Below, one piece after another: positions 32,336 to 48,148 of a stretch of 64,000 bases of DNA; the stretch's first letter is position 1; each line of letters begins with the position of its first letter. Below the pieces are notes generated by a model. It was not told the origin of the DNA and ran no database searches. It worked only from the letters and a program-made list of their open reading frames with translations. The stretch lies in sequence record DRR378314_1079. One strand, written 5' to 3'. Both the position numbers and the translations under genes were made by a program.

Positions 32336-33679
32336 TTAGAGAAGAACACCGAACAGGTAACCGGCAAGAAGCAGCACGATACCGCCACCTATACGGGAGG
32401 AGATCTGCGCGTAGGGGAACAGGTCCATCCGGCGGGAGGCGCCTAAAACTTCCAAGTCCCCGGAACCGCCACGGTTGGCCATGCAGAGCCCGGCGCTGAT
32501 CGCAGCTTCGATCGGGTAACAGCCAAAGAACCTTGCGACGAGCATCGTGCCAAGTACGGCGCCAAACACAACAAACAGACAAATCAGGACATTTGTGAAC
32601 TTCAGAGCGGCAAGCAGTTCATTAAGGTCGGTAATTAAGCCAACGGCGACCAGAACAAGAACCAGGAAGACCTTCATCCCCCATTCAGAAAGAACAATGA
32701 GAGAGCGCTTCTGGTCTGCTGAGAGAATATTCAGGAGGTTGACGGCCACAATCAGTATCACGACCCAGGCAAATAAATGAACCATCGGCACCAGTGAGTA
32801 CAGTAGAAAACACAGGAGAAGAACCGCCAGCACGAAGAACAGGGCGCCATGGGTATTCAGCATACCTTTCGTATCAGTGTCTTCTTCAAACCTTGGGCTG
32901 TCATTGTTAACCCGAAGAAGTTTGCCATTGCCGGTTAGCGCCGGGAATCGATTGCCTAGCCTGTTGAGTCCGGAAGCGACGAGTATGGCCAGGATATTGG
33001 CCAGTGTGAGAACCGAGATGGCATAGCTGTAATAGTCTCCGTCATCCATGCCAGTAATATCATTGTAGATTTCGGCCATTGGTATGGCGCCGGCGCCGTT
33101 TCCGCCCCCCATGATCGGCAACACGTAATGCGTGATAATTCGTGCCGGCTCCACCCCAACCATCAAACCCATGGCAATACCAAGGGTGGCAGCTCCGACC
33201 AGTCCAGCCAGAATGATGGGGATATAGGCAAGCAGCGACCTTACAAGTACCTTTGGTGGTACCGAAAGAATGCTAGAGGCAATGATTGCGACAAGGAGAA
33301 AGTAGAGGAAACGGTTGTCCAGTACCGAACCTTGAAGGAAGTCCGCATCCTCTCGCGAAATGACTCCCCAGTGGACCAGCACAGCAGCGCCAAAAAAAGC
33401 CATGATCATTCCGCCGCCAATGTATTCCCTCCAGACGGGCAGTTTTTCACCGATCGCATACAGAATGAAGCCGATGGCCCACATAAATGCGAAAGCCCCG
33501 ATAATGCCCGTTTCCTGAAGCTGCCCCATCTTCCAGAACAAAATAATCAACACGGCCATTATGGAGAAGAACAGCACTGGTATCCCGGCAACCTCCAGTT
33601 GGAAGGCTCGTTTGATTTTGCTCTCCTGCTCATTGTTGTTCTGAGGCACGCTTTCTGCGGTAGTGCTATTTCTTGTCAT
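32336..33679 (-). CDS. 2-hydroxycarboxylate transporter family protein (CitS/MaeN-like)
   Basis: PIMGGGNGAGAIP, GLCMANRGGSGD..VL.A..RM.L, YAQISSRIGGG. Confidence 0.93.
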   Translation of the reverse strand: MTRNSTTAESVPQNNNEQESKIKRAFQLEVAGIPVLFFSIMAVLIILFWKMGQLQETGIIGAFAFMWAIGFILYAIGEKLPVWREYIGGGMIMAFFGAAVLVHWGVISREDADFLQGSVLDNRFLYFLLVAIIASSILSVPPKVLVRSLLAYIPIILAGLVGAATLGIAMGLMVGVEPARIITHYVLPIMGGGNGAGAIPMAEIYNDITGMDDGDYYSYAISVLTLANILAILVASGLNRLGNRFPALTGNGKLLRVNNDSPRFEEDTDTKGMLNTHGALFFVLAVLLLCFLLYSLVPMVHLFAWVVILIVAVNLLNILSADQKRSLIVLSEWGMKVFLVLVLVAVGLITDLNELLAALKFTNVLICLFVVFGAVLGTMLVARFFGCYPIEAAISAGLCMANRGGSGDLEVLGASRRMDLFPYAQISSRIGGGIVLLLAGYLFGVLL

Positions 33680-33780
33680 AATGTCTTCTCTGGTTTCAAT
33701 TCACATGCTTTTCCCTGCTCGTCTTCGCTCGCAGGTTCTGTCGCCAATGCGTGGTTAGGGGGACATTAAACTCTGTCTCG

Positions 33781-33823
33781 ATATAAGTAAATCTTGATTT
33801 AAATTGTCAATATTTACTTATAT
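33781..33823. promoter_or_regulatory. Inverted repeat with 17-bp arms, putative operator (core TTGA-N9-TCAA)
   Basis: ATATAAGTAAATCTTGA-tttaaattg-TCAATATTTACTTATAT; one mismatch between arms. Confidence 0.75.
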
Positions 33824-33887
33824 TCTGGCTGTTGTTGCATAAAAAAGGTTTCTTAATAAGGGGGCGCGAGTGGAGCAATGCTTTTGT

Positions 33888-34826
33888 TCAATGATGTAGA
33901 GCGTGCCTGATCAGTTCGGATTCGGTGGTCAGGATGTCACGAACGACCGGCGCAACTTCATTGAACCTGACTACGCCGTGAATGATGTTGGGAATGATCG
34001 AGGTGCTGACATCAACATTCGATGCGGACAACTTGGCACCCAGAAGGACATTCTCATCAAGCAGCGGGTCGAGGTCGCCAATGACCAATCGAGTTCTTGG
34101 TAACCCCCTTAAATCCGCATATATCGGTTGAGCTCGCCAGTCCCATTCATTGTTGGGAAGATAGTCGCTCCAATGCTGTTTCATAGACTCTGCTGACAAG
34201 CCAAATCCATTATAACCCCCCAGTCTTTCCCAGGATTCGGAAGAAGTGTCTTTGGAATAGACCCCGTAGAACAGCATAAGGTAACGGCAATGGGGGAGGC
34301 CGGTATCCCGTAGTGAAAGCGCCGCGCCCAGCGCCAGATTTGCACCCGCTGAATCCCCACCGATTGCGTATTCATCAATGTGCCATTTATCGGCGATGCC
34401 TCTCAAAAGGACATGCCTTATGACCGACACTACTTCGACAAATGCTGTGGGAAACTGGTTTTCCGGCGACAGTGCATAGTCTATTGATAGAATGCCAATG
34501 TTGCTCTCTCTGGCGAGCTGCCTGAGAGGAGCGTCCCATTCTTCCAGGGATCCATGACGGAAGCCCCCGCCGTGGCAGTAAAACATCAGTTTTACTTTCC
34601 TGTGACTATCGTCAGGCAGGTAAAGTTTCAGCCTTACTGATCGACCGTTAACCTGGAGGTCCAGGTAACGCTCAACCGGCAGGGGCACGCTGCCTTTTGA
34701 TGCCAGCTCCGTTATTCGTTTTAGATAGTCCCGGGTGGTTGGCGCATCGCTATTCTTTGGGGGGATAAGGTTGTTTTCCTTCAATTTGGATACGACACGT
34801 GCCAGGTCCTTGTGAATCGTATTCAT
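33888..34826 (-). CDS. Alpha/beta hydrolase of the HSL/Aes esterase family
   Basis: HGGGF, IDYALSPE, GDSAGANLA, DPLLDE, IHG; start moved to ATG 34826 because a terminator lies at 34860-34887. Confidence 0.9.
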   Translation of the reverse strand: MNTIHKDLARVVSKLKENNLIPPKNSDAPTTRDYLKRITELASKGSVPLPVERYLDLQVNGRSVRLKLYLPDDSHRKVKLMFYCHGGGFRHGSLEEWDAPLRQLARESNIGILSIDYALSPENQFPTAFVEVVSVIRHVLLRGIADKWHIDEYAIGGDSAGANLALGAALSLRDTGLPHCRYLMLFYGVYSKDTSSESWERLGGYNGFGLSAESMKQHWSDYLPNNEWDWRAQPIYADLRGLPRTRLVIGDLDPLLDENVLLGAKLSASNVDVSTSIIPNIIHGVVRFNEVAPVVRDILTTESELIRHALHH

Positions 34827-34859
34827 GGTTCCGGTCCAATTATGGTCATGATGGCGTTT

Positions 34860-34887
34860 AAAAAAATGGCGACCCTTAGGGTCGCCA
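34860..34887 (-). terminator. Intrinsic terminator after the OprD-family porin
   Basis: Minus strand TGGCGACCCT-a-AGGGTCGCCA followed by T7. Confidence 0.75.
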
Positions 34888-34935
34888 AGCAACTGCTGGG
34901 TCAACAAAGAAATAAAACAACAGACGGGATAGGGC

Positions 34936-36348
34936 TTAGAATGCGTAGTCCAGATACACCCGTGTTTCTTTACCTGTTACAACGTTTTCGGGTTGCGCTG
35001 AAACGAGCGCAACAAAATCTTCATTGATATCGTAATCGGTAAAAATAAGGCCTACTGAAAGCCCGGTGTAGTTGTGTTCATCAAAGCGGTAATAGATCCG
35101 GTATTCAGACTGGCGCTCGGTGATATCGCCGGTGTCACCCGTTAGTGGGTTCGTGGCATCGAACGAACCGCGTTTATAGGTGGCCAGCATCTGGAGGCCA
35201 TCCAGGGGGATGTCAAAGAGTTGATGATTCGAGAAACTGTATTCCACTGCCAACTGCCAGGCTTCCTCGCCGTCGTTGTTAAAGTCATTGCCGGCCCTGG
35301 TCCAGACATCGAGCCTGCCATCGGCGTTATCGGCATGGTCAAAATAGGCATAGCCTATCTGGCCATTGTCCAGTTCCGCCTCGGCTTTCGTCCATGAGGC
35401 CCCGAACCTCCAGTTATCCAGAAGGAGTCCCAAGTTTATGTTTGTCCAGTTCGCTGAGGATGTGTACCCGGCAAGTCCTTGGGCAACGTCCTGCGACCAG
35501 AGGTCACCGTTTTCCCGAAAATCATAGTATTGGGCATCAAGAAGAACGCCGCTGTTTTCCCCCAAGGGCGCCTTCAGCTCCAGGCCGTACTTGGTGTTGC
35601 GGTTAAAATCCTTGGAGACCCCTGTAGCGTAACTCAGTACAATGGCCTGAAGGTCATAGGTGAGGCCAATTGTGCTGACGTTATCGATAACGTCGCCGCT
35701 CAGGTTACGAAAGTGCTCGGTACGTCTGCGGTCGCGCGGAGATGCCCTGTCAATAAAGGCGGCATCCAGGCTGAGCTCGCCGGCCAATGGACCAACATCG
35801 AGCCCGGATTTCCCCATGTAGAGTTTGCTGCCACGGTAGCTTCCGGGAACCGCCCGAGTGTCCTTGGTCACTATTGTGCCAGCGTCAAATCTGCCCAGGC
35901 CGGCATCAAGGCCAACGTGCCAGTCGGCAGTGCGGTGCCGCAGTTTGACGTGGGCCTGCCCGATTTTCGCGAAGCCTTCGTTCCTGCCGTCTGAGTCGTC
36001 GAACAGGTCTCTGCTGTTTGTTTCGGAATGCACCTTGCCGACGCCGTAAAGCGATACCCTAACGCCAATAGCATCGCTCCAGTAGGGCGAGTCATAGTCA
36101 AGGACTGCGCCAATGGCGGTTCCTCCCAGGTCATTGCCGAACGAAAATCCTCCAAAGTTCTCTTCGATCAATTCGTTTTCAATTTCTGTGTCGATATCTA
36201 CCGCACGCAGGTAAAGATTGAGTTGGCCTTCATTGGTCGTACGATTGGCGGTATTCATATTTTCGCCAATTCTTGCTCCGTAGGAGGCGCCACTCGTGAT
36301 CATGAGTACAGAAGCGAGAGTCACTATTTTTGTATTAAAGGTTGTCAT
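34936..36348 (-). CDS. OprD/Occ-like outer-membrane porin
   Basis: Signal peptide, LDYDSPYW, DTRAVPGSYRG, DFNNDGEEAWQL..EYSF, terminal RVYLDYAF. Confidence 0.75.
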   Translation of the reverse strand: MTTFNTKIVTLASVLMITSGASYGARIGENMNTANRTTNEGQLNLYLRAVDIDTEIENELIEENFGGFSFGNDLGGTAIGAVLDYDSPYWSDAIGVRVSLYGVGKVHSETNSRDLFDDSDGRNEGFAKIGQAHVKLRHRTADWHVGLDAGLGRFDAGTIVTKDTRAVPGSYRGSKLYMGKSGLDVGPLAGELSLDAAFIDRASPRDRRRTEHFRNLSGDVIDNVSTIGLTYDLQAIVLSYATGVSKDFNRNTKYGLELKAPLGENSGVLLDAQYYDFRENGDLWSQDVAQGLAGYTSSANWTNINLGLLLDNWRFGASWTKAEAELDNGQIGYAYFDHADNADGRLDVWTRAGNDFNNDGEEAWQLAVEYSFSNHQLFDIPLDGLQMLATYKRGSFDATNPLTGDTGDITERQSEYRIYYRFDEHNYTGLSVGLIFTDYDINEDFVALVSAQPENVVTGKETRVYLDYAF

Positions 36349-36391
36349 GATTACTGTGCCTTATTGTTTTATGTTGAAGGTTTCTTTGTGG

Positions 36392-37684
36392 TCAAATTAT
36401 TGCGCCCGTAATTACGCCTCCAATGATGAATATGAACGACGACGATATGGCCCAGGGCAGTGCGAACCGTTGAAGGTCACCAACCTCAACTTTCAGCATT
36501 GAGCTGATAAGATAAATGGGCGCGATCAGGGGGCTAAGGGCATGAACGGGCATCCCCATTAGTGAAGCTCTGGCAATATTCATCGCGTCGATATTAAACT
36601 CGCTTCCAACGCCGCCCATTATTGGTACAACGCCAAAGAAGAAAGCATCGTTGGAAAGGATGAATGTCAGTGGCAGGCTGATGAAGGCAACAATCACACT
36701 GAAGTATTCGCCGGCCCCATCGGGAATGATGGCTACAAACTCTTCAGACAGTGCGGAAACCATTCCCGTACCATTGATGATTCCCGCGAAAACGCCGGCC
36801 CCGAGAATCAGGGTTGCTACCGTAAGAACGTTACCCGAGTGGGACATCAGTCTTTCTTTTTGGTCTGAAAGATTTGGATAATTAACGACCAGGGCGAGAG
36901 CTAGAGCACCAACCATAAGCGCGGGTAAGGGGGCAAAGCCCAACGCCATTGAGCCAAAGAGACCTATCGTTAAAGCGAGGTTAACCCAGAAAAGTTTTGG
37001 CCTTCTGGCAGGATTGGCATCCTGTTGGTATTCCAGTTCACCAATGTCTTTTGAAAGAGAGTTTGGATGGGTCCAGTTCAGCCTCTTTCTTTCCCGGAGG
37101 CCCAGCCAATACGCCACAAAGAATGCATAGACCACAGCAATCAGGATGGCCGGAATCAGCCCCAAAAACACTTCAGTGGCGTCCAGATTCAGTGCACTTG
37201 CGGCGCGCGCTGTGGGGCCACCCCAGGGCACAACATTTATGACCGTATTGGTCAGTAGTAGAAGAACTGCGATGATGCAGGGATTCATTCCGACTTTCAG
37301 ATAAAGCGGAAGCATAGCCGTTACGACAATCAGAACGGTACTTGTTCCGTCGCCGTCAAGAGAGGTTATAACGCCCAGAACGGCCGTATACATTGCAATT
37401 CGTAACGGGTCATCCCCAGACAAGCGGATGATTCTTTTTACTAGTGGATCGAATAGCCCCGCATCGTACATCAGAGCAAAGAAAAGGATGGCGAAGATTA
37501 GCATTATCGCAATGGGCGCCACCTCGACCATTCCTTCCATGATCATGCCGCCCAGTTCCCCACGACTCTCCGTCATGAGCCCAAAAAGTATGGGGATAAC
37601 AATCAGTGCTGTGAACGCTGATAATTTTCTCATCATGATGAGAACCATGAAGGTCACCACCATTCCGAACCCTATTAATGCCAT
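36392..37684 (-). CDS. CitMHS-family citrate:cation/H+ symporter
   Basis: FAILFF.LM.DAGLFDP, SLDGDG, N..PWGGPTARA, SNDAFFFGVVP, HALSPL; start ATG 37684. Confidence 0.92.
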   Translation of the reverse strand: MALIGFGMVVTFMVLIMMRKLSAFTALIVIPILFGLMTESRGELGGMIMEGMVEVAPIAIMLIFAILFFALMYDAGLFDPLVKRIIRLSGDDPLRIAMYTAVLGVITSLDGDGTSTVLIVVTAMLPLYLKVGMNPCIIAVLLLLTNTVINVVPWGGPTARAASALNLDATEVFLGLIPAILIAVVYAFFVAYWLGLRERKRLNWTHPNSLSKDIGELEYQQDANPARRPKLFWVNLALTIGLFGSMALGFAPLPALMVGALALALVVNYPNLSDQKERLMSHSGNVLTVATLILGAGVFAGIINGTGMVSALSEEFVAIIPDGAGEYFSVIVAFISLPLTFILSNDAFFFGVVPIMGGVGSEFNIDAMNIARASLMGMPVHALSPLIAPIYLISSMLKVEVGDLQRFALPWAISSSFIFIIGGVITGAII

Positions 37685-37772
37685 GCTTTGACCTTTTTTG
37701 TTGTGTATGTCAGTGACTGTCGAAAGGGGAGTGCCTTTCGAATGGAAGACAGTAATTCTCAATTTTTTAAAA

Positions 37773-37797
37773 GTAAAGATTGAATAAAAACGTCAAT
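37773..37797. promoter_or_regulatory. Putative operator GTAAAGATTGA-N9-TCAAT
   Basis: GTAAAGATTGA-ataaaaacg-TCAAT between CitMHS and the regulator; weaker copies at 37871-37889 and 37903-37927. Confidence 0.7.
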
Positions 37798-37948
37798 GTG
37801 TATTAAATAAGTTTGAGGAAGAGAGGCGGGAATATTGAAATGGAAGCCGAAATGGCTATCTATTCAATGATTTGAGCGTATTTTTCATTGACGGGCTATG
37901 ACGTTAAGATTGACGCTTTAACTTTACCTGGGCGCGAGTGGATAGAAG

Positions 37949-39139
37949 ATGACCAGCAACGAAGGCCTTTATTTGACGGCGGAGGAAGCTGCAGAGCGGC
38001 TCGGAGTGAGTCAGGCTACTCTGTATGCCTATGTGAGCCGAAAGAACATCCGGTCCCTGCAGATAGAGGGCTCCAAGAAACGGCGATACTGGGCCGAGGA
38101 TATTGAGCGGATCCGCAAGAAGCCAAACACACCGAAGCGGCGCTCCGGCCGCTCTCAAACGCCGTCTGCGCAAAGCGCGATCACGCTTCTGACCGACACT
38201 GGCCTATATTACAGGGGCGTGGATGTGCTTGATCTGGTGGAGACGAAGTCCGTCGAGGAGGTTGCGGAGCTGCTTTGGCAGGTACCTGGCGCCTTTGACC
38301 ATGAGCTCCTACGCACGCCGGAATCCACTGACGAACTGCTGGACCTCTATCGCGGGTATCAGGCGTCTGAGAAAGCGATTGCCCTGTTCCCAACCCTCGA
38401 ACGGGCCAACCCAAGGGCGTTTGATCTTTCGCCAGAGGGCTACGCAAGAACCGGTTCCGGGGTCGTCAGGTGGTTTGCCGCATTGGTGGGAGGAAAGAAC
38501 CGACCCACCAACGAACCCTTGCATCAGTACCTTGTTGAAGCCTGTGGGGTCGACCCGGGCTACGGAGATCTTCTGCGACGCCTGATGATCCTGTCGCTGG
38601 ACCATGAGCTTGATCACTCCACCAATACCGTGAGGGCAGCGGCCATGACCGGCGTGACGCCCTTTTACGCCGCGATTACCGGCCTGGCTTCCTATCACGG
38701 TCGTCGTGTTGCCTACGGCCGGGCGCAGACGATCAACCAGTTGCTCAACGAAATCTGCACCAGTGCCGATCCGGTCCGGCCGTTGCTGAAGCATTTTGGG
38801 GAAAAGAACGCCATTCCCGGATTCGGTGACGCTGTGCCTGTCCGGGTCGATACCAGGGTGGATTCACTGCTGTCCTCCCTGGACAGTTGTTTTGGGGAGG
38901 ACCCGGAATTTCAGCGTCTCATGAAGGCTGCCCAGGTTGCGCAAGAGCTGGTCGGCCATCCCCCGGAGTTCCTCCTGTTAGCGACCTTTGTCGGCCGGAA
39001 ATTTGGCCTGGATGGGCAGGAGCTGGCGTTGATCGGCGTGGCTCGCATGGTCGGGTGGATAGCCCACGCCTGTGAGCAGTACAACACCCAGCCTTTCTCA
39101 CGGGAACGGGCTTTCTATACCGGGGAGCTGCCAGGCTGA
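37949..39139 (+). CDS. HTH (excisionase/MerR-like) fused to a degenerate citrate synthase domain; probable transcription factor
   Basis: YLTAEEAAERLGVSQATLYAYVSR; citrate synthase remnants SAITL...LYYRG, DHEL, IPGFG, ARMVGWIAH..EQ; catalytic His/His/Asp motifs altered. Confidence 0.85.
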   Translation: MTSNEGLYLTAEEAAERLGVSQATLYAYVSRKNIRSLQIEGSKKRRYWAEDIERIRKKPNTPKRRSGRSQTPSAQSAITLLTDTGLYYRGVDVLDLVETKSVEEVAELLWQVPGAFDHELLRTPESTDELLDLYRGYQASEKAIALFPTLERANPRAFDLSPEGYARTGSGVVRWFAALVGGKNRPTNEPLHQYLVEACGVDPGYGDLLRRLMILSLDHELDHSTNTVRAAAMTGVTPFYAAITGLASYHGRRVAYGRAQTINQLLNEICTSADPVRPLLKHFGEKNAIPGFGDAVPVRVDTRVDSLLSSLDSCFGEDPEFQRLMKAAQVAQELVGHPPEFLLLATFVGRKFGLDGQELALIGVARMVGWIAHACEQYNTQPFSRERAFYTGELPG

Positions 39140-39266
39140 AATTGCTGAAGCCCAACCCGCCCGGGATTGGGCTTCGACCTCTTACCGTGCCCGCCTCGGG
39201 CGCTTGATTTCCCCTTCCTCAACTTCCTTCAGGTCTTACCGCTCCGTTCGGGGCAAGTCGTAATTA

Positions 39267-39291
39267 GTACACATTGATAAAATATATCCAC
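39267..39291. promoter_or_regulatory. Putative operator GTACACATTGA-N9-TCCAC
   Basis: Variant of the island palindrome ~60 bp upstream of the AtuA-like gene. Confidence 0.6.
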
Positions 39292-39351
39292 TTTTATTAA
39301 AAATACAAACAATTATCATGGTTGCACGTTCATAGTGGAGGAAATACAAGA

Positions 39352-40770
39352 ATGACTGAAAGAGCGGATGACCGTGTAAAGGTGATCGTTCCCTGCGGTT
39401 CGTTGGGGGCGGGTGTGCGCGAAGAGGAGCTTGAGTTCGGTCTGGCGCGGGGCGCACAGGCAATCGCGACTGATGCGGGCTCTACGGATAGTGGCGCTGC
39501 CTATCTTGCCCTTGGCAAATCGAAGAACAATCGGGGAGCGGTCAAGCGGGATATGACGCTGCTGATGAAGGCACAGGTTCGCCATGGAATCCCGATTATT
39601 GTGGGCACCAGTGGCCAGGCCGGTGGCGATCTCAACCTCAACTGGACGCGAGACATCGTCCTGGAAATCGCGGAAGAGCTGGGAGTGTCTCCCAGGATCA
39701 CGCTTATCTACAGTGAACAGGACAAAGCCAGGGTGAAAGGCCTGAATGCAGAAGGCCGCATCCGACCGCTGCCGCCGCTTGGCGCGTTGGAAGACAGTAC
39801 GATCGATTCTTGTGATCACATCGTGGCGGCCATGGGGGTGGAACCGTTCCTGGCAGCTCTCGAAGCCGGGGCGGAAATAATCCTGGCAGGAAGGGCAACG
39901 GATACCGCCGTGCTTGCCTCTTACCCCATCTGGAAGGGAATGCCGTGGGGGCCCTCCTGGCATGCCGGGAAAATCGGTGAATGCGGTGTGCAGTGTTCCG
40001 CGAACCCGACACTCGGCTCCGGGATTCTGCTGACCGTGGATGCGGAGGGCTTTCAGGTGGAGCCGTTAAGCGAGAACAATCGCTGTACACGCCATAGTGT
40101 CTCCGCCCACATGCTCTACGAGAATACGGATCCCTTCTATTTGATTGAGCCCGGCGGAATCCTGAATGTGTCCGACGCACGCTACCTGCAGATCAATGAG
40201 CGGACGGTGCGCGTCGTCAATTCACGCTGGGACCCGATGCCCTACACGTTGAAGCTGGAAGGGGCCGGCGGTGGCCTGTATCAGACGCTGATGATGGTCG
40301 GCATCCAGGACCCGGATGTTCTCAATGACATTGACGGTTTTCATGATCGCTTATTGGCAGCCCTTTACGAGCGCACGCGTAAGTGTATTCCGCCCGAGGA
40401 GCTTGGGGAGTTCCATATTTCCCTGCGTATGTACGGGTGGAATGCTGTGAGCGGTGTTGCCCCTTCGAAGGGAACATCGCCGCCTCCTGAAATCGGCGTT
40501 CTGTTTGTCGCAACTGCCGAGACGCAGGACCTCGCGAACACCATCGCCCATGCGTGCAATCCCTATTTCTTCCACTACCCGAATGTCATGGATAAGGAGT
40601 TGCCATCCTACGGTTTCCCGTTCTCGCCCGCGGACATACCCCGGGGGCAGGTCTATGAATTCAAGCTCAACCATGTCGTCGAGCTTGAGGACCCCATGGA
40701 GCTCGTGCGAACGCATTGGATTAATTTTCAGGACGCAGTCTTTTCAGATAAGGAGGTTAACAATGCCTAA
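39352..40770 (+). CDS. Acyclic terpene utilization AtuA-like (DUF1446) protein
   Basis: P.GSLGAG, DAGSTDSG..YL..G, ILAGRATDTA, WHAGKIGECG, HMLYENTDPF...PGG; RBS GGAGG. Confidence 0.8.
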   Translation: MTERADDRVKVIVPCGSLGAGVREEELEFGLARGAQAIATDAGSTDSGAAYLALGKSKNNRGAVKRDMTLLMKAQVRHGIPIIVGTSGQAGGDLNLNWTRDIVLEIAEELGVSPRITLIYSEQDKARVKGLNAEGRIRPLPPLGALEDSTIDSCDHIVAAMGVEPFLAALEAGAEIILAGRATDTAVLASYPIWKGMPWGPSWHAGKIGECGVQCSANPTLGSGILLTVDAEGFQVEPLSENNRCTRHSVSAHMLYENTDPFYLIEPGGILNVSDARYLQINERTVRVVNSRWDPMPYTLKLEGAGGGLYQTLMMVGIQDPDVLNDIDGFHDRLLAALYERTRKCIPPEELGEFHISLRMYGWNAVSGVAPSKGTSPPPEIGVLFVATAETQDLANTIAHACNPYFFHYPNVMDKELPSYGFPFSPADIPRGQVYEFKLNHVVELEDPMELVRTHWINFQDAVFSDKEVNNA

Positions 40771-41071
40771 GCTACGGGATGTCTGTCGGCACGTCCGCTC
40801 CAAGCAAGCGGGGCCTTTCTGGATCACCTACGACATATTTTTTGACGGGCGTGAAAACTTTGACCGTTACCACGACAGCCCCTCATTGGCGCCGGAACAG
40901 TTTGCAAGGATCTATGGCGCTGATGCCTCCCTGGTAAAGCGTGTTTCGGTTCCCGACCTTGAGATGGTGAAGGTTTCCCACCCGCGACCGATGCCGCAGG
41001 GCGGAATGGTCGAACGCGATATGCATGCCGGCCAGCAGTACGTTCGGCTGCTTGATGTTGCAATGGAGTAA
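40763..41071 (+). CDS. DUF4387-family small protein
   Basis: 102 aa, VRSKQAGPFWITYDIFF and ERDMHAGQQY; RBS AAGGAGG; overlaps the AtuA-like stop codon. Confidence 0.82.
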   Translation: MPKLRDVCRHVRSKQAGPFWITYDIFFDGRENFDRYHDSPSLAPEQFARIYGADASLVKRVSVPDLEMVKVSHPRPMPQGGMVERDMHAGQQYVRLLDVAME

Positions 41072-41134: not shown

Positions 41135-42511
41135 TTGACTGATATCAATCTGGCTCACCGGCTCGCGGAATACGCCGGTAACTTCGCTACCTCAGGTTTA
41201 CCCGAGGAGGTTGTTCGCTGTGCCAAAAGGCGTTTCCTGGACAGTTTGGCATGCACCCTCGGGGCGTATGGAACCAGGCCGGTGGAAGCGGCAATCGCGC
41301 TGGCCGCTACAGTGCCGGTGCCGGCGTCGGGTGTGTTTGGCACCACCTTGAGGACAAGCCCCGAACTGGCGGCCTTTGCCAACGGTACGATGGTGCGCGT
41401 TCTGGATTACAACGACGGTTACATGGGGCTCGAACCTGGGCACCCGAGCGACAACATTCCTGCATGTCTCGCTCTTGCTGAAGCGGAGGGTGCATCGGGT
41501 AGGGAGCTCATAGAGGCTGTGGTATTGGCCTATGAGGTGCAAATCAGGCTCCAGGATGCCGCCAGCCTGAACAGGCGTGGTTGGGACCATGTGAATTACA
41601 TCAACGTATCCGTCGCTGTAGCCGCTGCGCGACTGTTGAAACTGAATGTGTCGCAGACGGAGCAGGCGATCAATATAGCGCTTGGCGGGCACCTGGCCTT
41701 GCGGCAGGTCCGCTCCGGGGCGCTGTCGGACTGGAAAGGCTGCTCCGCCGCGAACGCGGCGCGCAATGCCGTATTTTCTGCCTTACTGGCACGTCAAGGA
41801 ATGACCGGGCCGGCTCCCATCTTCGAGGGGAGTATGGGGTTCTTCGCGCAGGTTTCCGGTGAGTTTGATCTCGACACGGCCACCTTCGCGAATTTCCATA
41901 ATGGTGACTATGCAATCCTGCGCTCGCTCACCAAAACATTCCCTACCAATGGCGAACTGCACACCGCGGTTTGGGCAGCTATCGAGTTGGGCCTTCAGAT
42001 CACCGACCTAGACACGGTTGCAGCCATTCATATTGAGACATCGGAATTCAACAAGCGGGTGTTAGCGGACACCCCTGAGAAATGGCGGCCTCAAACCCGG
42101 GAGACGGCAGACCATAGCCTGCCTTACAACGTGGCCAGAGCACTGCTGGATCACGATATCGGTCTTGACTCCTACACCCCGGGAAAAATCGCCGATCCGA
42201 CCGTCATTGCTTTGATGGACAAGACGACTGTCGATGAGGACGACGACCTGACTGGTCTCTTCCCCGGGCATCTGGCAAACAGGGTAACCATTCGACTCAC
42301 CACCGGGGAAACGCTCGTCAGTGAAAAAATCACCGGCCCCGGCTCCGTCGAAACGCCCATGACAGATAGTGACTTCGAACGGAAGTTTCGCCGCATGGCC
42401 GCTCCCCACATTGATCACTTGGCTCAGGAGGATGTGCTGGCGTTCGTGGCCAATCTGGAGCTACAAACCGACTTCGCGTCTTTGTTCGCAGGCATGGCTG
42501 CGAAAAACTGA
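41135..42511 (+). CDS. MmgE/PrpD family protein (2-methylcitrate dehydratase-like)
   Basis: AFANG.MVR.LDYND, GHPSDNI, GWDH, R.G.LSDWKG, RETADHSLPY. Confidence 0.9.
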   Translation: MTDINLAHRLAEYAGNFATSGLPEEVVRCAKRRFLDSLACTLGAYGTRPVEAAIALAATVPVPASGVFGTTLRTSPELAAFANGTMVRVLDYNDGYMGLEPGHPSDNIPACLALAEAEGASGRELIEAVVLAYEVQIRLQDAASLNRRGWDHVNYINVSVAVAAARLLKLNVSQTEQAINIALGGHLALRQVRSGALSDWKGCSAANAARNAVFSALLARQGMTGPAPIFEGSMGFFAQVSGEFDLDTATFANFHNGDYAILRSLTKTFPTNGELHTAVWAAIELGLQITDLDTVAAIHIETSEFNKRVLADTPEKWRPQTRETADHSLPYNVARALLDHDIGLDSYTPGKIADPTVIALMDKTTVDEDDDLTGLFPGHLANRVTIRLTTGETLVSEKITGPGSVETPMTDSDFERKFRRMAAPHIDHLAQEDVLAFVANLELQTDFASLFAGMAAKN

Positions 42512-42524: not shown

Positions 42525-43820
42525 ATGCCGACTTTTGCACGCCTCTATCACCAATTCGGGGTTCCCCTGGCGGTTCTGATGGTGGGAATCATGACTGCCT
42601 ATATGGCGCTTCCGCAAAAGGCTGTCGCCGGTAGCCAGCTTCCTGTCGGGCCCGAGGCCGGAGATAGGAAGTTGTCGCCTTTCTATCGCTGGTCTACGTC
42701 CTTGCCAGGGGTGCCCGGTACGCTGTTGAAAAAAGAGCCGTTGTCCCTTCAGGACACCATGGACGCCGCAGGCAAGGCATTCCGGCTCTTGCATACCTCA
42801 ACGGATGCCCGTTGGCGCTCCGGGCAAGTGCCGGTCAGCGGTACATTGTTCATTCCGAAAGGACGCCCTCCTGAGGGCGGCTGGCCGCTCGTGGCCTGGG
42901 GGCACGGCACACTTGGCATTGCAGATGTCTGTGCGCCCTCCTGGACCGGGTTTCGCGCGCGGGACGCAATGTACATGAATCGCTGGCTCAACGCCGGATT
43001 CGCAGTCGTCGCAACGGATTACCAGGGGCTGGGCGGGCACGGCCCCCATCCTTACCTTTACTGGCAGGCGGAAGGTCGCTCTGTTCTGGATTCGGCCCGG
43101 GCGGCTCTGGCCGCCAGCGAAGGGCTGGTTTCAAACCAAGTAATGCTGGCAGGGCAATCCCAGGGGGCTGGAGCGGCTTTGGGCGCAGCAATCCTGTCGG
43201 AATCCTATGCACCTGACCTCCATGTTCTCGGTGTGGTCTCCACCGGCATTAACAGCACCTTTCCGGAGGGCCCGGTTTCACTCCCTGTCCGGAACTCCCC
43301 CAATATGTTCCTGAGTTTCGCGTCGGGCGGGTTAAAAGACGACGGTGCGCGTATTGAAGAAATTGTCAACGCCAAGGGCAGGCAGGTGCTCGACATGGCA
43401 CGCAGCGCCTGTACCGCGGAGATTGGAAAGCTGGCCCATGAACTGGGCATCCGGGAACTGGCCCAGGCGTTCACCGTCTCGCTGGAAGAGCTGCAGGAGA
43501 TGCGTATTCCGGTCACGGATATGCCTATGGCCTCGGTGGACACGCCAATCCTGATTGGCACTGGCCTGGCCGACGCCACGATTGTACCAATGCGACAGTT
43601 TGCGGCGGTATCCGCGCTGTGTGCCGCCGGCAACAAGGTCACCTGGCACCGTTACGAAGGTTTGGGCCACGACGGTGCAATGCATGGCTCGTTCGATGCA
43701 TCCCTTGCCTTTGCCCGTGCCATGCTGGCAGGCGCGGACGTAGGCTCCAACTGCCCTGAGATCGCCCCGCCAGGGCCTCCGGGTGAGTTGAAGGACGGCA
43801 TTCCCTTTAACGATGACTAG
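42525..43820 (+). CDS. Exported lipase/esterase (secretory lipase-like)
   Basis: Signal peptide, GGWPLVAWGHGT.G...CAPS, ATDYQGLG, GQSQG, D in GLADA, GHDG. Confidence 0.85.
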   Translation: MPTFARLYHQFGVPLAVLMVGIMTAYMALPQKAVAGSQLPVGPEAGDRKLSPFYRWSTSLPGVPGTLLKKEPLSLQDTMDAAGKAFRLLHTSTDARWRSGQVPVSGTLFIPKGRPPEGGWPLVAWGHGTLGIADVCAPSWTGFRARDAMYMNRWLNAGFAVVATDYQGLGGHGPHPYLYWQAEGRSVLDSARAALAASEGLVSNQVMLAGQSQGAGAALGAAILSESYAPDLHVLGVVSTGINSTFPEGPVSLPVRNSPNMFLSFASGGLKDDGARIEEIVNAKGRQVLDMARSACTAEIGKLAHELGIRELAQAFTVSLEELQEMRIPVTDMPMASVDTPILIGTGLADATIVPMRQFAAVSALCAAGNKVTWHRYEGLGHDGAMHGSFDASLAFARAMLAGADVGSNCPEIAPPGPPGELKDGIPFNDD

Positions 43821-43835: not shown

Positions 43836-45275
43836 ATGGGAAACGGTAAGACACTTTACGACAAGCACATTGATTCGCACACCGTATGCAAGCTGGATGA
43901 CGATGGGCATGTGCTCCTGTACATCGACCGCCAGGTATTGAACGAGTACACAAGCCCGCAGGCATTCACTGGCTTGCGGGAGAAGAAACGGACGGTGAGA
44001 ATGCCGGAGGCTGCGTTGGGGGTTGTCGATCATGTAAACCCGACATCACCGAACCGTATCCCGGCCATGTCCGACCCAGGCGGGGCGCGTCAGGTGTCCT
44101 ACTTTGGTGAGAACTGCCGGGATTTCGGCATAGAACTGTTCGGAGTAATGGACCGCCGTCAGGGGATCGAGCATGTCGTCGCCCCGGAGCAGGGTTTCAT
44201 CCTGCCGGGAATGGTGGTGGCCGCCGGCGACAGCCACACCACAACCTATGGCGCGCTTGGCGCCTTTGGTTTCGGTATTGGCACATCGGAAATCGAACAC
44301 CTTCTTGCAACCCAGACACTGGTGTACAAGCGCCTCAAGACCATGAGGGTACACGTTAAGGGCGAGTTGCCAGCGGGGGTGTCGTCGAAGGATATCATTA
44401 TGGGGCTCATCCGGCGTATTGGCGCCTCTGGTGCAACCGGGTACGCCATCGAATTCGCCGGCCCCGGTATAGAAGGGTTAAGCGTCGAGGCCCGAATGAC
44501 CATCTGCAATATGGCGGTTGAAGCGGGTGCGCGGGGGGCGTTTATGGCCCCCGACCAGAAAGTCTACGAGTATCTGGCCGGGCGACCGCGAGCTCCCAGG
44601 GGGGCGATGTTCGAGAAAGCGATGTCCTGCTGGGAAACCCTATACAGTGATCCGGAAGCGGAATTTGATGTTGATATCACCCTCGACAGCAGGGACCTGG
44701 CTCCAATGGTGACCTGGGGGACCAGCCCAGATCAGGCCGTCTTTATTGATGAGTCCGTTCCTGACCCCGAGGCACAATCCGACCCTGAACGCCGACGCGA
44801 CATGGAAAGGGCCCTGGCCTATATGGACCTGAAAGCGGGGCTGCCCATGACTGAGGTCAGGATTAGCCACGCTTTTATAGGCTCCTGCACAAACGCCCGA
44901 ATTGAGGACCTGCGCGCAGCCGCGTCGGTGGTAAGGAACCGACGCGTGGCAGAGGGGGTACGGGCAATGATTGTCCCCGGTTCCACAGCGGTTCGTGACG
45001 TGGCGGAAGAAGAGGGATTGGCGGAGATATTCAGGGCGGCGGGATTCGAGTGGCGCCAGTCCGGTTGTTCCATGTGCTTGGCGATGAATGATGACGTGCT
45101 GGCTCCTGGTGACCGCTGTGCATCCAGTACGAACCGCAATTTCGAGGGCCGACAGGGCGCCGGTGCACGCACCCATTTGATGAGCCCGGCCATGGTCGCC
45201 GCCGCGGCAATCACCGGCCACCTCACGGATGTCCGTTACCTTTCCGATAACAATACCATTGATGGAGGTCATTGA
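43836..45275 (+). CDS. leuC: 3-isopropylmalate dehydratase-like large subunit (aconitase family)
   Basis: TSPQAF, GIEHV, GDSHTTT, CNMAVE, [4Fe-4S] Cys in GSCTN and GCSMCLAMN, STNRNFEGRQG; no adjacent leuB, so probably not for leucine synthesis. Confidence 0.9.
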   Translation: MGNGKTLYDKHIDSHTVCKLDDDGHVLLYIDRQVLNEYTSPQAFTGLREKKRTVRMPEAALGVVDHVNPTSPNRIPAMSDPGGARQVSYFGENCRDFGIELFGVMDRRQGIEHVVAPEQGFILPGMVVAAGDSHTTTYGALGAFGFGIGTSEIEHLLATQTLVYKRLKTMRVHVKGELPAGVSSKDIIMGLIRRIGASGATGYAIEFAGPGIEGLSVEARMTICNMAVEAGARGAFMAPDQKVYEYLAGRPRAPRGAMFEKAMSCWETLYSDPEAEFDVDITLDSRDLAPMVTWGTSPDQAVFIDESVPDPEAQSDPERRRDMERALAYMDLKAGLPMTEVRISHAFIGSCTNARIEDLRAAASVVRNRRVAEGVRAMIVPGSTAVRDVAEEEGLAEIFRAAGFEWRQSGCSMCLAMNDDVLAPGDRCASSTNRNFEGRQGAGARTHLMSPAMVAAAAITGHLTDVRYLSDNNTIDGGH

Positions 45276-45886
45276 GTATGGAGCCTTTTATCTCCGTGAC
45301 CGGTGTTGCCGCACCCATGCTGGCGGCAAACATTGATACCGATGTCATCATGCCCAAGCAGTTCCTGAAAGGAATTGACCGAGCAGGCCTTGATCGAGGT
45401 GTGTTCCATGACTTGCGTTTTAACCGGGACGGGAGTGAAAACCCGGAATTCGTGTTGAATCGTCCCGATTGGCAGGGCGCGCGCTTCCTTGTCACCGGTC
45501 CGAATTTCGGGTGTGGGTCCAGTAGGGAGCATGCTGTCTGGGGGCTTCAACAATTGGGAATTCGTGGCTTGATCGGCACCACCTTTGCTGGAATCTTCGA
45601 CGACAACTGCCAGAGAAACGGAATCCTTACCATCTGTCTTGACCCGGTGTCTCACAGGATCCTGGCGGATATCATCTCGAGCCCCGGTAACAATTTGATA
45701 ACGATTGATCTAGAGGGACAGGTCGTAAACACAGAAGTGGCCGGACCTATAAAATTTTGTATCGAGCCCCTCCGGCGTGAATCTCTTATGCGGGGGTTGG
45801 ACGCCATTGCGCGAACCTTGGGGAAAGAGTCCCTGATAGAGCAATTCGAGGATAGTCATTTTGCCGATAAGCCTTGGCTTAGGTAA
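45272..45886 (+). CDS. leuD: 3-isopropylmalate dehydratase-like small subunit
   Basis: NIDTDVI.PKQFLK, NFGCGSSREHAVW, FAGIF..NC..NG. Confidence 0.9.
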   Translation: MSMEPFISVTGVAAPMLAANIDTDVIMPKQFLKGIDRAGLDRGVFHDLRFNRDGSENPEFVLNRPDWQGARFLVTGPNFGCGSSREHAVWGLQQLGIRGLIGTTFAGIFDDNCQRNGILTICLDPVSHRILADIISSPGNNLITIDLEGQVVNTEVAGPIKFCIEPLRRESLMRGLDAIARTLGKESLIEQFEDSHFADKPWLR

Positions 45887-45953
45887 CTCTCTTTGGCCTG
45901 TAAGGCTGTGACCAAATAATCCCAGCCTTACAAATGGCATATTCGTGGCGTTG

Positions 45954-46943
45954 CTAGAACTTGTACGACACACCAACCCCGACGAATGCCCCGTTTTCAT
46001 CAAAGAAAGTAATGGTCGAATCTGTCTCGCTATAGCCGGCCAGGGAAATGAAAGACCAGTTTTCCTGGCCAAACATGCCGCGATATTCATAGGAGAGGTT
46101 GGCTTTGTACGCCAAGCTATCCTGTTTTTCTCCGAATATAGGGTTCGGATCCTTGAATCCGGTATCCGACAGCCGGAAGGAGAGCCCTATACTGGACCTG
46201 TCAAACTGTCGGCCGTAAGTGAGGCCGGCAGAGTATCTGGTAAATGACATTGCATCGCCGTCGGCACGGAATCTCTGCATATAAATTGCTGGTTCAAGGA
46301 ACGAGCGGCGGTCGATTGCAAACCTTTGCTTTGCGCTGAGGAAGTACCCCTCGCCGTTGCGGTCAAGGAGTTGTTGCGAACGGCTGTCCAGAAGGCCTTG
46401 CCCGGACAGCTCCTCGTCAACGTCCTCATAATAATAGCCGAGCGAAAAGTCGATTCGAGAATTCAGCAGGTTGTCATAATCAAGCAGGAACGCATTGCCT
46501 GTCACCTCGGTCTCTTCTCGATGTTGATCAACCAGGTAGGGGTTTTCCCAGGTTTCGTCATCTACAACGGTTGGCATTACAGAGAGTTCGATCGAAGAGT
46601 CTTCACCAAATCGCAGGCCGGCCCCCAGCTTAAGGGCCAAAGCACCTACCACAATGTCGTCCCGGGACGTTCCTGCAAATACGGAATATTTACTGTCGAT
46701 GCCAAAGTTATACCGTATCTGTCCGAGGGGCAGGATGAAGGACTTTGAGTCGGACTCCGCCTCGGAATCGAGAGGCGACGATTTTCGATCGTTCTCTGTG
46801 TTGAAGTTGCTCCGTTTCTGGTTAAGGCCTGAAATTATGGCCATTTCTCCCTCAAACGTTCCTTCGGCAAGGCCGGGCGCAGAGTGCCCGATGGATATGA
46901 TAATCCCCAAACACTTGGCGTTAATAAAGCGTTTCATGGTCAA
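45954..46943 (-). CDS. Outer-membrane beta-barrel protein (DUF2860-like)
   Basis: Signal peptide, alternating beta strands, WENPYL...R.ET, NPIFG, terminal VSYKF. Confidence 0.65.
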   Translation of the reverse strand: MTMKRFINAKCLGIIISIGHSAPGLAEGTFEGEMAIISGLNQKRSNFNTENDRKSSPLDSEAESDSKSFILPLGQIRYNFGIDSKYSVFAGTSRDDIVVGALALKLGAGLRFGEDSSIELSVMPTVVDDETWENPYLVDQHREETEVTGNAFLLDYDNLLNSRIDFSLGYYYEDVDEELSGQGLLDSRSQQLLDRNGEGYFLSAKQRFAIDRRSFLEPAIYMQRFRADGDAMSFTRYSAGLTYGRQFDRSSIGLSFRLSDTGFKDPNPIFGEKQDSLAYKANLSYEYRGMFGQENWSFISLAGYSETDSTITFFDENGAFVGVGVSYKF

Positions 46944-47090
46944 GTACGACTCCCTTGCTGGTCAAATCAGTAGCGAAAGTATGTGTTTTGAGACGGGAAT
47001 TATTCTGGCGGAATGTTCTTGCATTTGGGTCTCGCGGCGAGTGCCCTTAATCTCGCGCTGTTGGCTATACTAATCGGTCCAAGGATATCG

Positions 47091-47115
47091 GTAAACATTG
47101 ATATAAAGCGTCAAT
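47091..47115. promoter_or_regulatory. Putative operator GTAAACATTGA-N9-TCAAT
   Basis: GTAAACATTGA-tataaagcg-TCAAT between the divergent OMP and dehydrogenase genes. Confidence 0.7.
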
Positions 47116-47173
47116 ATATATGTTTTTTAAGTAAGCTGTTAGGATGGAACGGAAATGCTTAGGAGAGCCGTTC

Positions 47174-48148
47174 ATGAAGAAAAAGGTGTTGGTTTACAGT
47201 CGTGTAACACCGGATATGACCAGGGTATTCGAGGACAGTTACGATTTTATTTTTATCGATGGGAAATCCGCTGATTTTGAGACAGAGCTGAAAAGCAGGC
47301 TAGGGGAGGTGCATGGAATTGTTGGCGCAAATGTATCGCTGGACAGCAGTTTACTGGATGAGGCGCCGAACCTGGAGGCGGTATCCACTGTATCGGTTGG
47401 CTATGACAAGTACGACCTGGATTATCTGAACAGGCGGGGGATTCCCCTAACAAATACTCCGGATATTCTAACGGAGACCACCGCCGACCTGGCATTCACA
47501 TTGCTCATGTGCTGTGCGCGGCGGGTTGTCGAGCTTGATAATTGGACAAAAGGTGGCGCGTGGAACCGAATTATCGATGAATCGAAGTTTGGGGTCGATA
47601 TTCATCGCAAAAGAATTGGAATCATCGGAATGGGGCGAATAGGAGCGGCGATTGCCCGTCGAGCGCACTTCGGTTTTGGCATGGAGGTTCTGTATTGCGG
47701 TCGGGAGAAAAAAGCCACCATAGAAGAGGAGGTTGGGGCGAAATACCGGAGCTTCAAACAGCTCATCTCCGAATCGGACTTTATTTTACCAGTGGTTCCA
47801 CTCAACCGGGATACACGTGGCTTGATAGGTGAAGCCGAGTTCGAATTGATGAAGGCGAGCGCGATACTTGTGAATGTATCCCGTGGGGCGATCATCGATG
47901 AGGCGGCGCTTGTAGACGCCCTGGGGAAAAAGCGGATTTTCGCGGCCGGGCTGGATGTATATCATAATGAGCCTCTTCAAGATTCACCGCTTTTCGGGTT
48001 AGATAATGTGACCACCCTTCCGCATATCGGCTCAGCTACCGGGGAGACCAGGGAGGCAATGGCGGTGTATGCCTTGGAGAGCCTGATTGCTGTCCTTGAA
48101 GGTAAGGTTCCGGAGAATATAGTTAATTCTCCCGAGTCAAATAGCTAA
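47174..48148 (+). CDS. D-2-hydroxyacid dehydrogenase (GhrB/2-ketogluconate reductase-like)
   Basis: SVGYD, NTPDILTETTAD, GMGRIG, NVSRG, GLDVY..EP, PHIGSAT; RBS AGGAG. Confidence 0.92.
   Translation: MKKKVLVYSRVTPDMTRVFEDSYDFIFIDGKSADFETELKSRLGEVHGIVGANVSLDSSLLDEAPNLEAVSTVSVGYDKYDLDYLNRRGIPLTNTPDILTETTADLAFTLLMCCARRVVELDNWTKGGAWNRIIDESKFGVDIHRKRIGIIGMGRIGAAIARRAHFGFGMEVLYCGREKKATIEEEVGAKYRSFKQLISESDFILPVVPLNRDTRGLIGEAEFELMKASAILVNVSRGAIIDEAALVDALGKKRIFAAGLDVYHNEPLQDSPLFGLDNVTTLPHIGSATGETREAMAVYALESLIAVLEGKVPENIVNSPESNS

Follow-up and report, generated by a model that had tools for sequence, protein, structure and literature searches.

We analyzed a stretch of 64,000 nucleotides (nt) from sequence record DRR378314_1079 (the window), in which 13 neighboring, intact genes between positions 32336 and 48148 form a cluster that we lean toward reading as one regulon for the scavenging and degradation of a citrate analogue. 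An earlier note on this DNA, made from the sequence alone, had named 13 gene families for the cluster. Profile scans with Pfam and NCBIfam recovered all of them, contiguous and intact. The genes and the other features of the cluster are:

32336-33679, minus strand: 2HCT (CitS-like) carrier, read as a transcription unit of its own behind operator copy 1 (PF03390, 410 bits)
33780-33816: operator copy 1, with both half-sites perfect (GTAAATCTTGA-N9-TCAATATTTAC at 33787-33817; repeat family and pattern matches)
33888-34907, minus strand: HSL-type esterase (Abhydrolase_3), predicted to be cytoplasmic (PF07859, 151 bits)
34936-36348, minus strand: OprD-like outer-membrane porin (PF03573, 59 bits)
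36392-37762, minus strand: CitMHS metal-citrate-type symporter (TIGR00784, 460 bits, above the cut-off of 259.7)
37766-37802: operator copy 2, in the divergent CitMHS/regulator promoter region (repeat family and pattern matches)
37949-39139, plus strand: regulator with an N-terminal HTH_17/MerR-like domain and a citrate-synthase-fold domain (PF12728 and PF00285)
39187-39203, plus strand: terminator-like hairpin after the regulator gene (consensus scan only)
39260-39296: operator copy 3, degenerate, upstream of the lyase operon (62% identity to the reference copy; misses the stricter consensus and half-site patterns)
39322-40770, plus strand: putative lyase large subunit, AtuA/DUF1446 family (PF07287, 82 bits; 9ERQ chain A)
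40763-41071, plus strand: putative lyase small subunit, DUF4387, CmlB-like (PF14330, 108 bits; 9ERQ chain B)
41135-42511, plus strand: MmgE/PrpD-family protein with N and C domains (PF03972 and PF19305)
42525-43820, plus strand: LIP-family lipase/esterase, predicted to be exported, within the lyase operon (PF03583, 63 bits)
43836-45275, plus strand: LeuC-like Fe-S hydro-lyase large subunit (NF009116, 785 bits, cut-off 531)
45272-45886, plus strand: LeuD-like small subunit (NF002458, 223 bits, cut-off 167)
45954-46943, minus strand: DUF2860 putative outer-membrane barrel (PF11059, 248 bits)
47084-47120: operator copy 4, between the DUF2860 and dehydrogenase genes (repeat family and pattern matches)
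47144-48148, plus strand: D-isomer-specific 2-hydroxyacid dehydrogenase, GhrB-like (PF02826 and PF00389)

The center of the cluster is a predicted lyase of the CmlAB type, which makes the system a variant of known organic-acid catabolism and not a categorically new one. The large subunit matches chain A of structures 9ERQ and 9EVF, named "citramalate lyase subunit A (cmlA)", with an E-value of 8.9e-80 and 272 bits (residues 19-459 of 482 in the window protein against 5-440 of 456 in CmlA), compared to the weak 82 bits of its Pfam AtuA match. For the DUF4387 protein, the match is to chain B, "subunit B (cmlB)" (E-value 2.2e-11). The two subunit genes overlap by 8 nt. The large subunit probably starts at the ATG at 39352; a database protein that is 98% identical to it has 472 amino acids. 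Enzymes with this chemistry release acetate from a tertiary alcohol with a CH2-COO- arm, a reaction once proposed for AtuA in terpene breakdown too. According to one sentence of a preprint, Cml from Raoultella planticola cleaves citramalate directly into pyruvate and acetate (bioRxiv 10.64898/2026.01.16.699985). An unexplained DUF1446 gene downstream of methylaspartate ammonia-lyase was remarked on in a passage of a 2015 paper (PMC4682846). A comparison by eye shows residues in solved CmlA unlike those of the window protein at positions that never vary in a 23-sequence alignment, for example D93 and N258. None of the genes of the methylaspartate pathway (mal, glutamate mutase, mesaconase) was found in the cluster or in the rest of the window. 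We infer that the window pair is a relative of CmlAB that would cut its substrate, without coenzyme A (CoA), into acetate and a 2-oxo acid. Because of this homology, the predicted pathway contains a C-C cleavage step. The route drawn in the earlier note (ester hydrolysis, uptake, dehydration or isomerization, then redox) lacked such a step and left the AtuA-like and DUF4387 proteins unexplained.

The genes of the cluster appear to share an operator. A repeat search of the window returned a 37-nt family with four copies (at 33780, 37766, 39260, and 47084), all of them intergenic and occupying precisely the four intergenic regions that must carry promoters. On close reading, the element is a long palindrome, GTAAA-N2-TTGA-N9-TCAA-N2-TTTAC. 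A 31-nt consensus with up to three mismatches had three matches in the window and none in 100 shuffles, a test that is partly circular in that the consensus was built from the sites themselves. The half-site TCAA-N2-TTTAC (nine bases) had five matches in the window against 0.20 expected, and none of 100 shuffles reached five. The five matches are confined to the cluster: four fall in the operator regions, and the fifth is within the OprD-like gene. This fifth, exact half-site (36211-36221, approximately 130 nt from the gene start) could be an internal site or a chance match. The bare palindrome ATTGA-N9-TCAAT was weak by itself (four matches, 1.65 expected; 7 of 100 shuffles reached four). The shared palindrome reported earlier is real, with copies in all four promoter-bearing intergenic regions. 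We read the cluster as six putative transcription units: 2HCT; CitMHS-OprD-esterase; the regulator; lyase-DUF4387-PrpD-LIP-LeuC-LeuD; DUF2860; and the dehydrogenase. The putative operator at all four promoter regions supports the view that the 13 genes are one co-regulated unit.

The lyase pair and much of the gene set are conserved in other bacteria. We compared 69 related loci from a one-genome-per-species scan and 44 from metagenomes, some of which duplicate genome loci; loci are cited by our numbers (L001 and so on). The lyase pair was the sole component present in every related locus, and its two genes were adjacent in 65 of the 69 genome loci, with three of the four exceptions interrupted by a contig end. 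In a tree calculated with FastTree, without the enterobacterial CmlAB sequence, the clade of the window lyase (clade A; 27 rows, 15 genome loci) was set apart from a larger sister clade with an SH-like support of 100. The window lyase nests among sphingomonad sequences in this tree. Some members of the lyase clade (P0014 and P0017) are publicly named "3-methylaspartate ammonia-lyase", a mis-annotation already remarked on in the 2015 paper (PMC4682846).

The closest counterpart of the cluster as a whole was in Alloalcanivorax marinus (L002), where orthologues of 10 of the 13 genes (esterase, porin, CitMHS, regulator, both lyase subunits, PrpD-like, LIP, LeuC, and LeuD; 51-77% identity) are clustered in a rearranged order, so that the absence of co-occurrence, which the earlier note had named as grounds for giving up its proposal, does not hold. 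The esterase gene of L002 overlaps the PrpD-like gene, and the locus also contains a 2-hydroxyacid dehydrogenase of another subfamily and a gene for a Ca2+/Na+ antiporter; an antiporter gene of this type lies within the operon in both L001 and L002. The operator half-site was present in the regulator-CitMHS intergenic region of L002 and upstream of the lyase gene in L010. Over all 134 loci, it occurred in seven, with one match each, which is about the chance level, and only in L002 and L010 was the match in the relevant promoter region.

Gene content varied within clade A. Among its 15 genome loci, we found a conserved 2-hydroxyacid dehydrogenase in 12, a TonB-dependent receptor in 11, CitMHS in nine, a class II aldolase-family protein in eight, tartrate dehydrogenase in six, glycerate 2-kinase in six, a GPH-type MFS carrier in four, and an OprD-like porin in two. 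An outer-membrane channel always accompanied the lyase clade, and CitMHS usually did. The subtype of the TonB receptors in the related loci gave no hint of the substrate. PrpD-like and LeuCD genes were each present in only five of the 15, so both look accessory; for the PrpD-like gene this is also because the near-identical sphingomonad loci L003 and L004 differ in its presence. A sphingomonad-like metagenome contig (L099:10001-17149) has two AtuA-like paralogues, one in a receptor/CitMHS cluster and the other beside a regulator gene of the type found in the window.

The other related loci had different partners. CitMHS, TonB-dependent receptor, OprD, LeuCD, and the regulator were each found in none of the 54 genome loci outside clade A. 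The sister-clade pair is preceded by tctC-tctB-tctA in 44 of 54 loci, frequently along with genes for a two-component system. This compact tctC-tctB-tctA-AtuA-like-DUF4387 operon (L015, L029, L031, and 41 more genome loci) is common in Rhodobacteraceae and Granulosicoccus, and looks like a module for the import and cleavage of a tricarboxylate or dicarboxylate. In a third group (Paenibacillus L055 and L117), the pair is accompanied by a PrpD-like gene, a Rieske protein, an amidohydrolase, and GlcD/F-like oxidases, with a GDSL esterase in addition in L055. We also surveyed 400 gammaproteobacterial genomes, sampled evenly; six had an AtuA-like gene (E<=1e-40), and the clade of the window was represented only in Alloalcanivorax. 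In L002 (129-1205) and L031 (11643-12668), which belong to unrelated lineages, the lyase cluster has a gene for an AbrB-duplication membrane protein as a neighbor.

The regulator appears to be a DNA-binding domain fused to a catalytically dead sensor with a citrate-synthase fold. In alignments that included solved citrate synthases and the L002 and L010 homologues, the protein has GFGD where the enzymes have GFGH and EFLLLAT where they have NVDFYSG, and it lacks the histidine of GPLHGGAN. The position of His274 is kept, as are the arginines of the DPR, xxR-xxGW-AH, and C-terminal motifs. In the numbering of the pig enzyme, we take the lost positions to be His320, Asp375, and His238, and the retained ones to be the three carboxylate-binding arginines. 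The protein scored 66 bits, compared to citrate-synthase cut-offs of 332 to 594 in NCBIfam. Homologues with the same N-terminal helix-turn-helix (HTH) domain adjoin the lyase in L002, L010, L096, L099, and L100. The family was found in five of the 400 gammaproteobacterial genomes, and the four besides Alloalcanivorax (L081-L084) have it next to LeuCD with TctBA (L081), prpB-prpC (L082), prpB-prpC-acnD-prpF (L083), and TctC (L084). Because these neighbors are prp, LeuCD, and Tct genes, the family seems to accompany enzymes and carriers of citrate analogues, and sensing of a "condensation-product-like" acid by its members would fit. In L082 (9376-12787) and L083 (9684-18000), the HTH/citrate-synthase-fold genes are divergent from prpB-prpC (plus acnD-prpF in L083), which suggests that the family supplies the regulator of methylcitrate operons in some gammaproteobacteria. 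It comprises 1636 protein clusters at E<=1e-20, and among the matches listed the names were "citrate synthase", "Xis", or "excisionase".

The PrpD-like and LeuCD-like enzymes belong to families that handle substituted succinates and malates. The PrpD-like protein is about equidistant from structures of IDS epimerase, 2-methylcitrate dehydratase, and cis-aconitate decarboxylase, and it scored far under the PrpD equivalog cut-offs (208 against 950, 137 against 575, and 117 against 458 bits). LeuCD-type enzymes act on citraconate and (R)-citramalate, as in the citramalate pathway to isoleucine. The LeuC and LeuD genes of the window overlap by 4 nt, no leuA or leuB was found in the window, and in the Alloalcanivorax genome the LeuC of the cluster is the lowest-scoring of four LeuC paralogues. 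The dehydrogenase scored 340 bits with the GhrB model, below the cut-off of 492. In the portion of the literature on MmgE/PrpD proteins that we drew on, the family includes an (S)-(R)-methylsuccinate isomerase, its substrates all have a 1,4-dicarboxylate backbone, and the PrpD and LeuCD families are described as acting on substituted succinates and malates (PMC12290011). The PrpD-like protein is a candidate dehydratase or epimerase of a substituted succinate.

The transporters and hydrolases are consistent with the uptake of a citrate-like acid, perhaps as an ester. CitMHS carriers such as CitM and CitH take up metal-citrate complexes, and 2HCT carriers can take citramalate. The true start of the CitMHS gene is probably an ATG near 37684, because the family match begins at residue 27. 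The 2HCT carrier scored 425 bits with the CitS model (cut-off 600). Orthologues of the OprD-like porin in L001 and L002 are 55-58% identical to it, and the DUF2860 protein has a signal-like N-terminus and a C-terminal phenylalanine. The HSL-type esterase has HGGG oxyanion and GDSAG nucleophile motifs, its best solved relatives are carboxylesterases, and no signal-like N-terminus was seen by eye. In the LIP protein, we found a GQSQG motif and, by eye, a hydrophobic, signal-like N-terminus; its distant solved relatives include the "esterase" 3H2G and the "Lipase A" 2VEO/3GUU. Esters of tertiary alcohols are among the substrates of GGGX-type esterases and Candida antarctica lipase A; we treat this as a lead only.

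Based on these results, we think it somewhat probable that the 13 genes are one regulon that scavenges and degrades a citrate analogue of the form R-C(OH)(COO-)-CH2-COO- (a 2-substituted malate), possibly by way of esters or lactones. From the observed gene content, the homology to CmlAB, the operator, and the conservation of the module, we propose a route in which each enzymatic step, its direction, and the effector are deduced. The OprD-like porin and the DUF2860 barrel would admit the compound, or its ester or lactone, across the outer membrane, and two hydrolases, LIP (exported) and the HSL-type esterase (cytoplasmic), would free the acid. Import would be by CitMHS, probably as a complex with a divalent metal, and by the 2HCT carrier; import of a metal chelate fits because the Ca2+/Na+ antiporter gene is inside the L001 and L002 operons. 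The two-subunit AtuA/DUF4387 enzyme would then cleave the acid without CoA into acetate and a 2-oxo acid, with the PrpD-family and LeuCD-like enzymes turning isomers (epimers and 3-substituted or unsaturated forms) into the cleavable form and the 2-hydroxyacid dehydrogenase handling the oxo-acid product. The dead enzyme domain of the HTH/citrate-synthase-fold protein would sense the acid, and the protein would act at the palindrome before every transcription unit. A citrate-like hydroxy-polycarboxylate, possibly supplied as an ester, had been proposed before, and the gene content points the same way. Four independent hints point to a citrate analogue: CitMHS above its cut-off together with 2HCT; the Ca2+/Na+ antiporter; PrpD with LeuCD; and the retained arginines of the regulator.

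Several substrates are compatible with this route. (R)-Citramalate/citraconate has a modest chance, and LeuCD and the unassigned fate of these acids in Pseudomonas fit such a C5 substrate. Hydroxycitrate or its lactones have a small to modest chance; cleavage of hydroxycitrate to acetate and oxaloglycolate, and onward to glycerate, fits the sphingomonad neighbors tartrate dehydrogenase, glycerate 2-kinase, 2-hydroxyacid dehydrogenase, and class II aldolase. There is a small chance that citrate or its esters are the substrate, and CitMHS, 2HCT, the Ca2+ exchanger, and the minimal modules fit citrate itself. The remainder of the probability falls to another 2-substituted malate (2-methylcitrate, homocitrate, itatartarate, or alkylmalates). 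We also suggest, tentatively and as a possibility with less than even chances, that the enzymes of clade A cleave a tricarboxylic citrate analogue (hydroxycitrate or citrate) with neither CoA nor an acyl carrier, as part of an undescribed aerobic route. Control of this route would fall to a large, mis-annotated family of transcription factors that have a dead citrate synthase as their sensor and also govern methylcitrate operons. Conversion of hydroxycitrate to acetate and oxaloglycolate would, if true, account for neighbors of the tartrate dehydrogenase, glycerate kinase, class II aldolase, and hydroxypyruvate reductase-like types. We found no description of a bacterial hydroxycitrate pathway or of catabolic genes for it in the open-access literature.

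Several observations weigh against the proposed regulon or parts of it. The functional anchor for the lyase is only a PDB name and one sentence of a preprint. The esterases are rare in clade A (HSL esterase in two and LIP in two of the 15 genome loci), and 2HCT and DUF2860 occur in none of the 15; these two genes are tied to the system by the operator alone. The plain palindrome ATTGA-N9-TCAAT was not found in L002 and was only marginal in L001, and the overall operator architecture of L002 is unlike that of the window. The window dehydrogenase is only about 30% identical to the one conserved in related clusters and is not its orthologue. The smallest versions (L096 and L100) hold only the regulator, receptor, CitMHS, and lyase, so the core function does not require the extra enzymes, and its products may feed straight into central metabolism. 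No tartrate dehydrogenase above the cut-off was found in the Alloalcanivorax or Hyphomonas-like genomes; the sphingomonad link is not general, and we dropped this enzyme as a general downstream step.

We weighed these points against other explanations. One is that the lyase is a true (S)-citramalate lyase, in a variant of C5-branched dicarboxylate catabolism in which LeuCD interconverts citraconate, (R)-citramalate, and 3-methylmalate. The sole characterized homologue bears the name citramalate lyase, and the activities of LeuCD-type enzymes and 2HCT carriers mentioned above suit such a pathway. There is room for a separate route, since the part of one study that we used reports that (R)-citramalate and citraconate are not used by the itaconate cluster of Pseudomonas aeruginosa (PMC9875883). 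Nonetheless, we consider this explanation unlikely: the cluster has no methylaspartate-pathway, fumarase/mesaconase, or CoA-transferase/Ccl genes, CmlA is unlike the window protein at the invariant columns, and the alphaproteobacterial tartrate dehydrogenase, glycerate kinase, and class II aldolase neighbors have no role after pyruvate and acetate. In addition, the presence of CitMHS, the Ca2+ exchanger, and TonB receptors suggests an acid that chelates more strongly than a C5 dicarboxylate does. That last set of genes would suit the salvage of a metal chelate or siderophore, in which a citrate-based chelator (for example, an O-citryl-ester siderophore) is imported and dismantled and its scaffold disposed of. 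The affinity of CitMHS for metal-citrate complexes, the antiporter gene of the L001 and L002 operons, and the esterases are in line with this, as is the replacement of OprD by siderophore-type TonB-dependent receptors (scoring below the cut-off) in the alphaproteobacterial versions. We judge it improbable, given that Pfam and NCBIfam found no Fur-type control, siderophore biosynthesis genes, ABC importer, or reductase in the cluster, that the regulators are of metabolite-sensing types (citrate-synthase-like, GntR/FCD, and LysR), and that the conserved core is a C-C lyase (every related locus) with a dehydrogenase (12 of 15). A separate FecCD/TonB-receptor iron-uptake set is present elsewhere in the window.

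The genes might also be a mosaic of chance neighbors without a single pathway, with the repeat a generic promoter element or the remnant of a mobile element. The drop in G+C content in the transporter parts, the AbiTii-like gene at the border, the wide variation of gene content between related loci, and the restriction of 2HCT and DUF2860 to the window could be read in this way. Against this, ten orthologues remain together in Alloalcanivorax despite rearrangement, the regulator is associated with the lyase in five further loci of different lineages, every half-site match of the window is inside the cluster, and there is apparent translational coupling of the lyase subunits and of LeuC and LeuD in the window and of PrpD and the esterase in L002; we regard a mosaic as very unlikely. 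Least credible to us is a CoA-dependent terpenoid or branched-acid pathway like Atu, or the biosynthesis of an alkylcitrate- or itaconate-type product, for which we see hardly any chance. Pfam does place the large subunit under AtuA, and fungal alkylcitrate clusters do hold PrpD-like and citrate-synthase-like genes. However, the AtuA match is far weaker than the match to CmlA, the citrate-synthase-like protein has an HTH domain and lacks the catalytic residues, no carboxylase, acyl-CoA dehydrogenase, hydratase, or CoA ligase was found among the 13 genes, and importers and porins dominate the cluster. We continue to favor a regulon for the degradation of a citrate analogue.

The cluster is distinct from the known systems that it resembles. 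It had been described as matching none of the prp, tcu, cit-lyase, itaconate, or leu clusters, and the Pfam and NCBIfam scans bear this out, as the defining genes of those systems are absent among the 13. The likeness to CmlAB consists of adjacent AtuA/DUF1446 and DUF4387 genes with a near full-length match, and the chemistry is presumably the same (CoA-free release of acetate from a tertiary alcohol). The window pair falls into a separate clade, in a tree that does not contain the enterobacterial enzyme. Whereas CmlAB has a methylaspartate-pathway context, as described in a passage of the 2015 paper (PMC4682846), the window has an outer-membrane channel, CitMHS, and the citrate-synthase-like regulator. 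With the methylcitrate cycle (prpBCDE/acnD-prpF), the cluster shares a PrpD-family protein and an aconitase-family hydro-lyase acting on a citrate analogue, and homologues of its regulator are divergent from prpB-prpC operons in two gammaproteobacteria. However, it lacks prpB, prpC, and prpE, contains neither a PEP_mutase/ICL protein nor a catalytic citrate synthase, and its cleavage would be by a different lyase family. Citrate fermentation (CitS/CitM with CitDEF) follows a common logic, the import of a citrate-family acid and its cleavage to acetate and an oxo acid, but citD, citE, citF, citC, citX, and citG are absent from the cluster. The predicted lyase is of a fold family unrelated to citrate lyase and has no acyl-carrier subunit, and its likely hosts are aerobes.

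Other resemblances are more limited. The LeuC and LeuD proteins pass the family cut-offs of leucine biosynthesis (leuABCD), and the window has no linked leuA or leuB. Six sphingomonad lyase modules abut genes of the tartrate utilization type (ttuA-E), namely LysR, 2-hydroxyacid dehydrogenase, glycerate 2-kinase, and a tartrate dehydrogenase that is above the equivalog cut-off (TIGR02089, 579 bits); the tartrate genes are absent from the window. The Pseudomonas itaconate cluster PA0878-0886 has an MmgE/PrpD-family isomerase and handles citramalate-type acids, according to the portions of two papers that we drew on (PMC12290011 and PMC9875883), but its pathway is CoA-dependent (Ict, Ich, and Ccl) and those genes are absent from the window cluster. 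The acyclic terpene utilization genes atuA-H have in common with the cluster a large subunit of the same Pfam family, with a weak match, and atuB-H, including the geranyl-CoA carboxylase subunits, are absent. In the open-access literature, we found no published description of the cluster and no paper linking AtuA with DUF4387 or with citramalate.

The borders of the cluster at 32336 and 48148, as given earlier, are correct because the flanking genes are unrelated to it. Upstream are a choline-sulfatase/BCCT/LysR set (27041-29598), cytochrome b561, and an AbiTii-like (abortive-infection) gene (31427-32152) that abuts the cluster directly; downstream are genes for TusA, cytochrome b, Fe-S, and Mo-oxidoreductase proteins. 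The G+C content is 0.48-0.52 in parts of the cluster, compared to approximately 0.58-0.60 in the surroundings, and no tRNA gene was detected within the window. Given the bordering AbiTii-like gene and the internal G+C drop, the cluster may have been acquired horizontally. Farther upstream, and like the choline-sulfatase set unrelated to the cluster, are a FecCD-type iron-chelate ABC importer and TonB-dependent receptor (17394-23597). Positions 82-5242 contain two family III CoA-transferase genes (one truncated by the window start), a GntR/FCD regulator, a porin, and a true type I citrate synthase (TIGR01798, 733 bits, above the cut-off) approximately 30 kilobases from the cluster, and may be another organic-acid locus.

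If the proposed function is true, it would provide a function and a substrate class for the widespread AtuA-like/DUF4387 gene pair. The large-subunit family comprises at least 3282 database clusters at E<=1e-30 (among 8000 candidates scored), Pseudomonas and Variovorax members are among the database matches, and the annotations of the pair are limited to "AtuA family", "DUF4387", and the erroneous "3-methylaspartate ammonia-lyase". If esters are the real feedstock, the esterase pair may be worth attention in connection with hindered tertiary-alcohol esters, for example citrate-ester plasticizers, again as a lead only. The most interesting points are the enzyme-derived regulator family and the identity of the substrate. 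If our interpretation is correct, the CmlAB type of lyase would be extended from glutamate fermentation to marine and soil bacteria that scavenge chelating hydroxy acids aerobically, and the HTH/citrate-synthase-fold proteins would be metabolite-sensing regulators.

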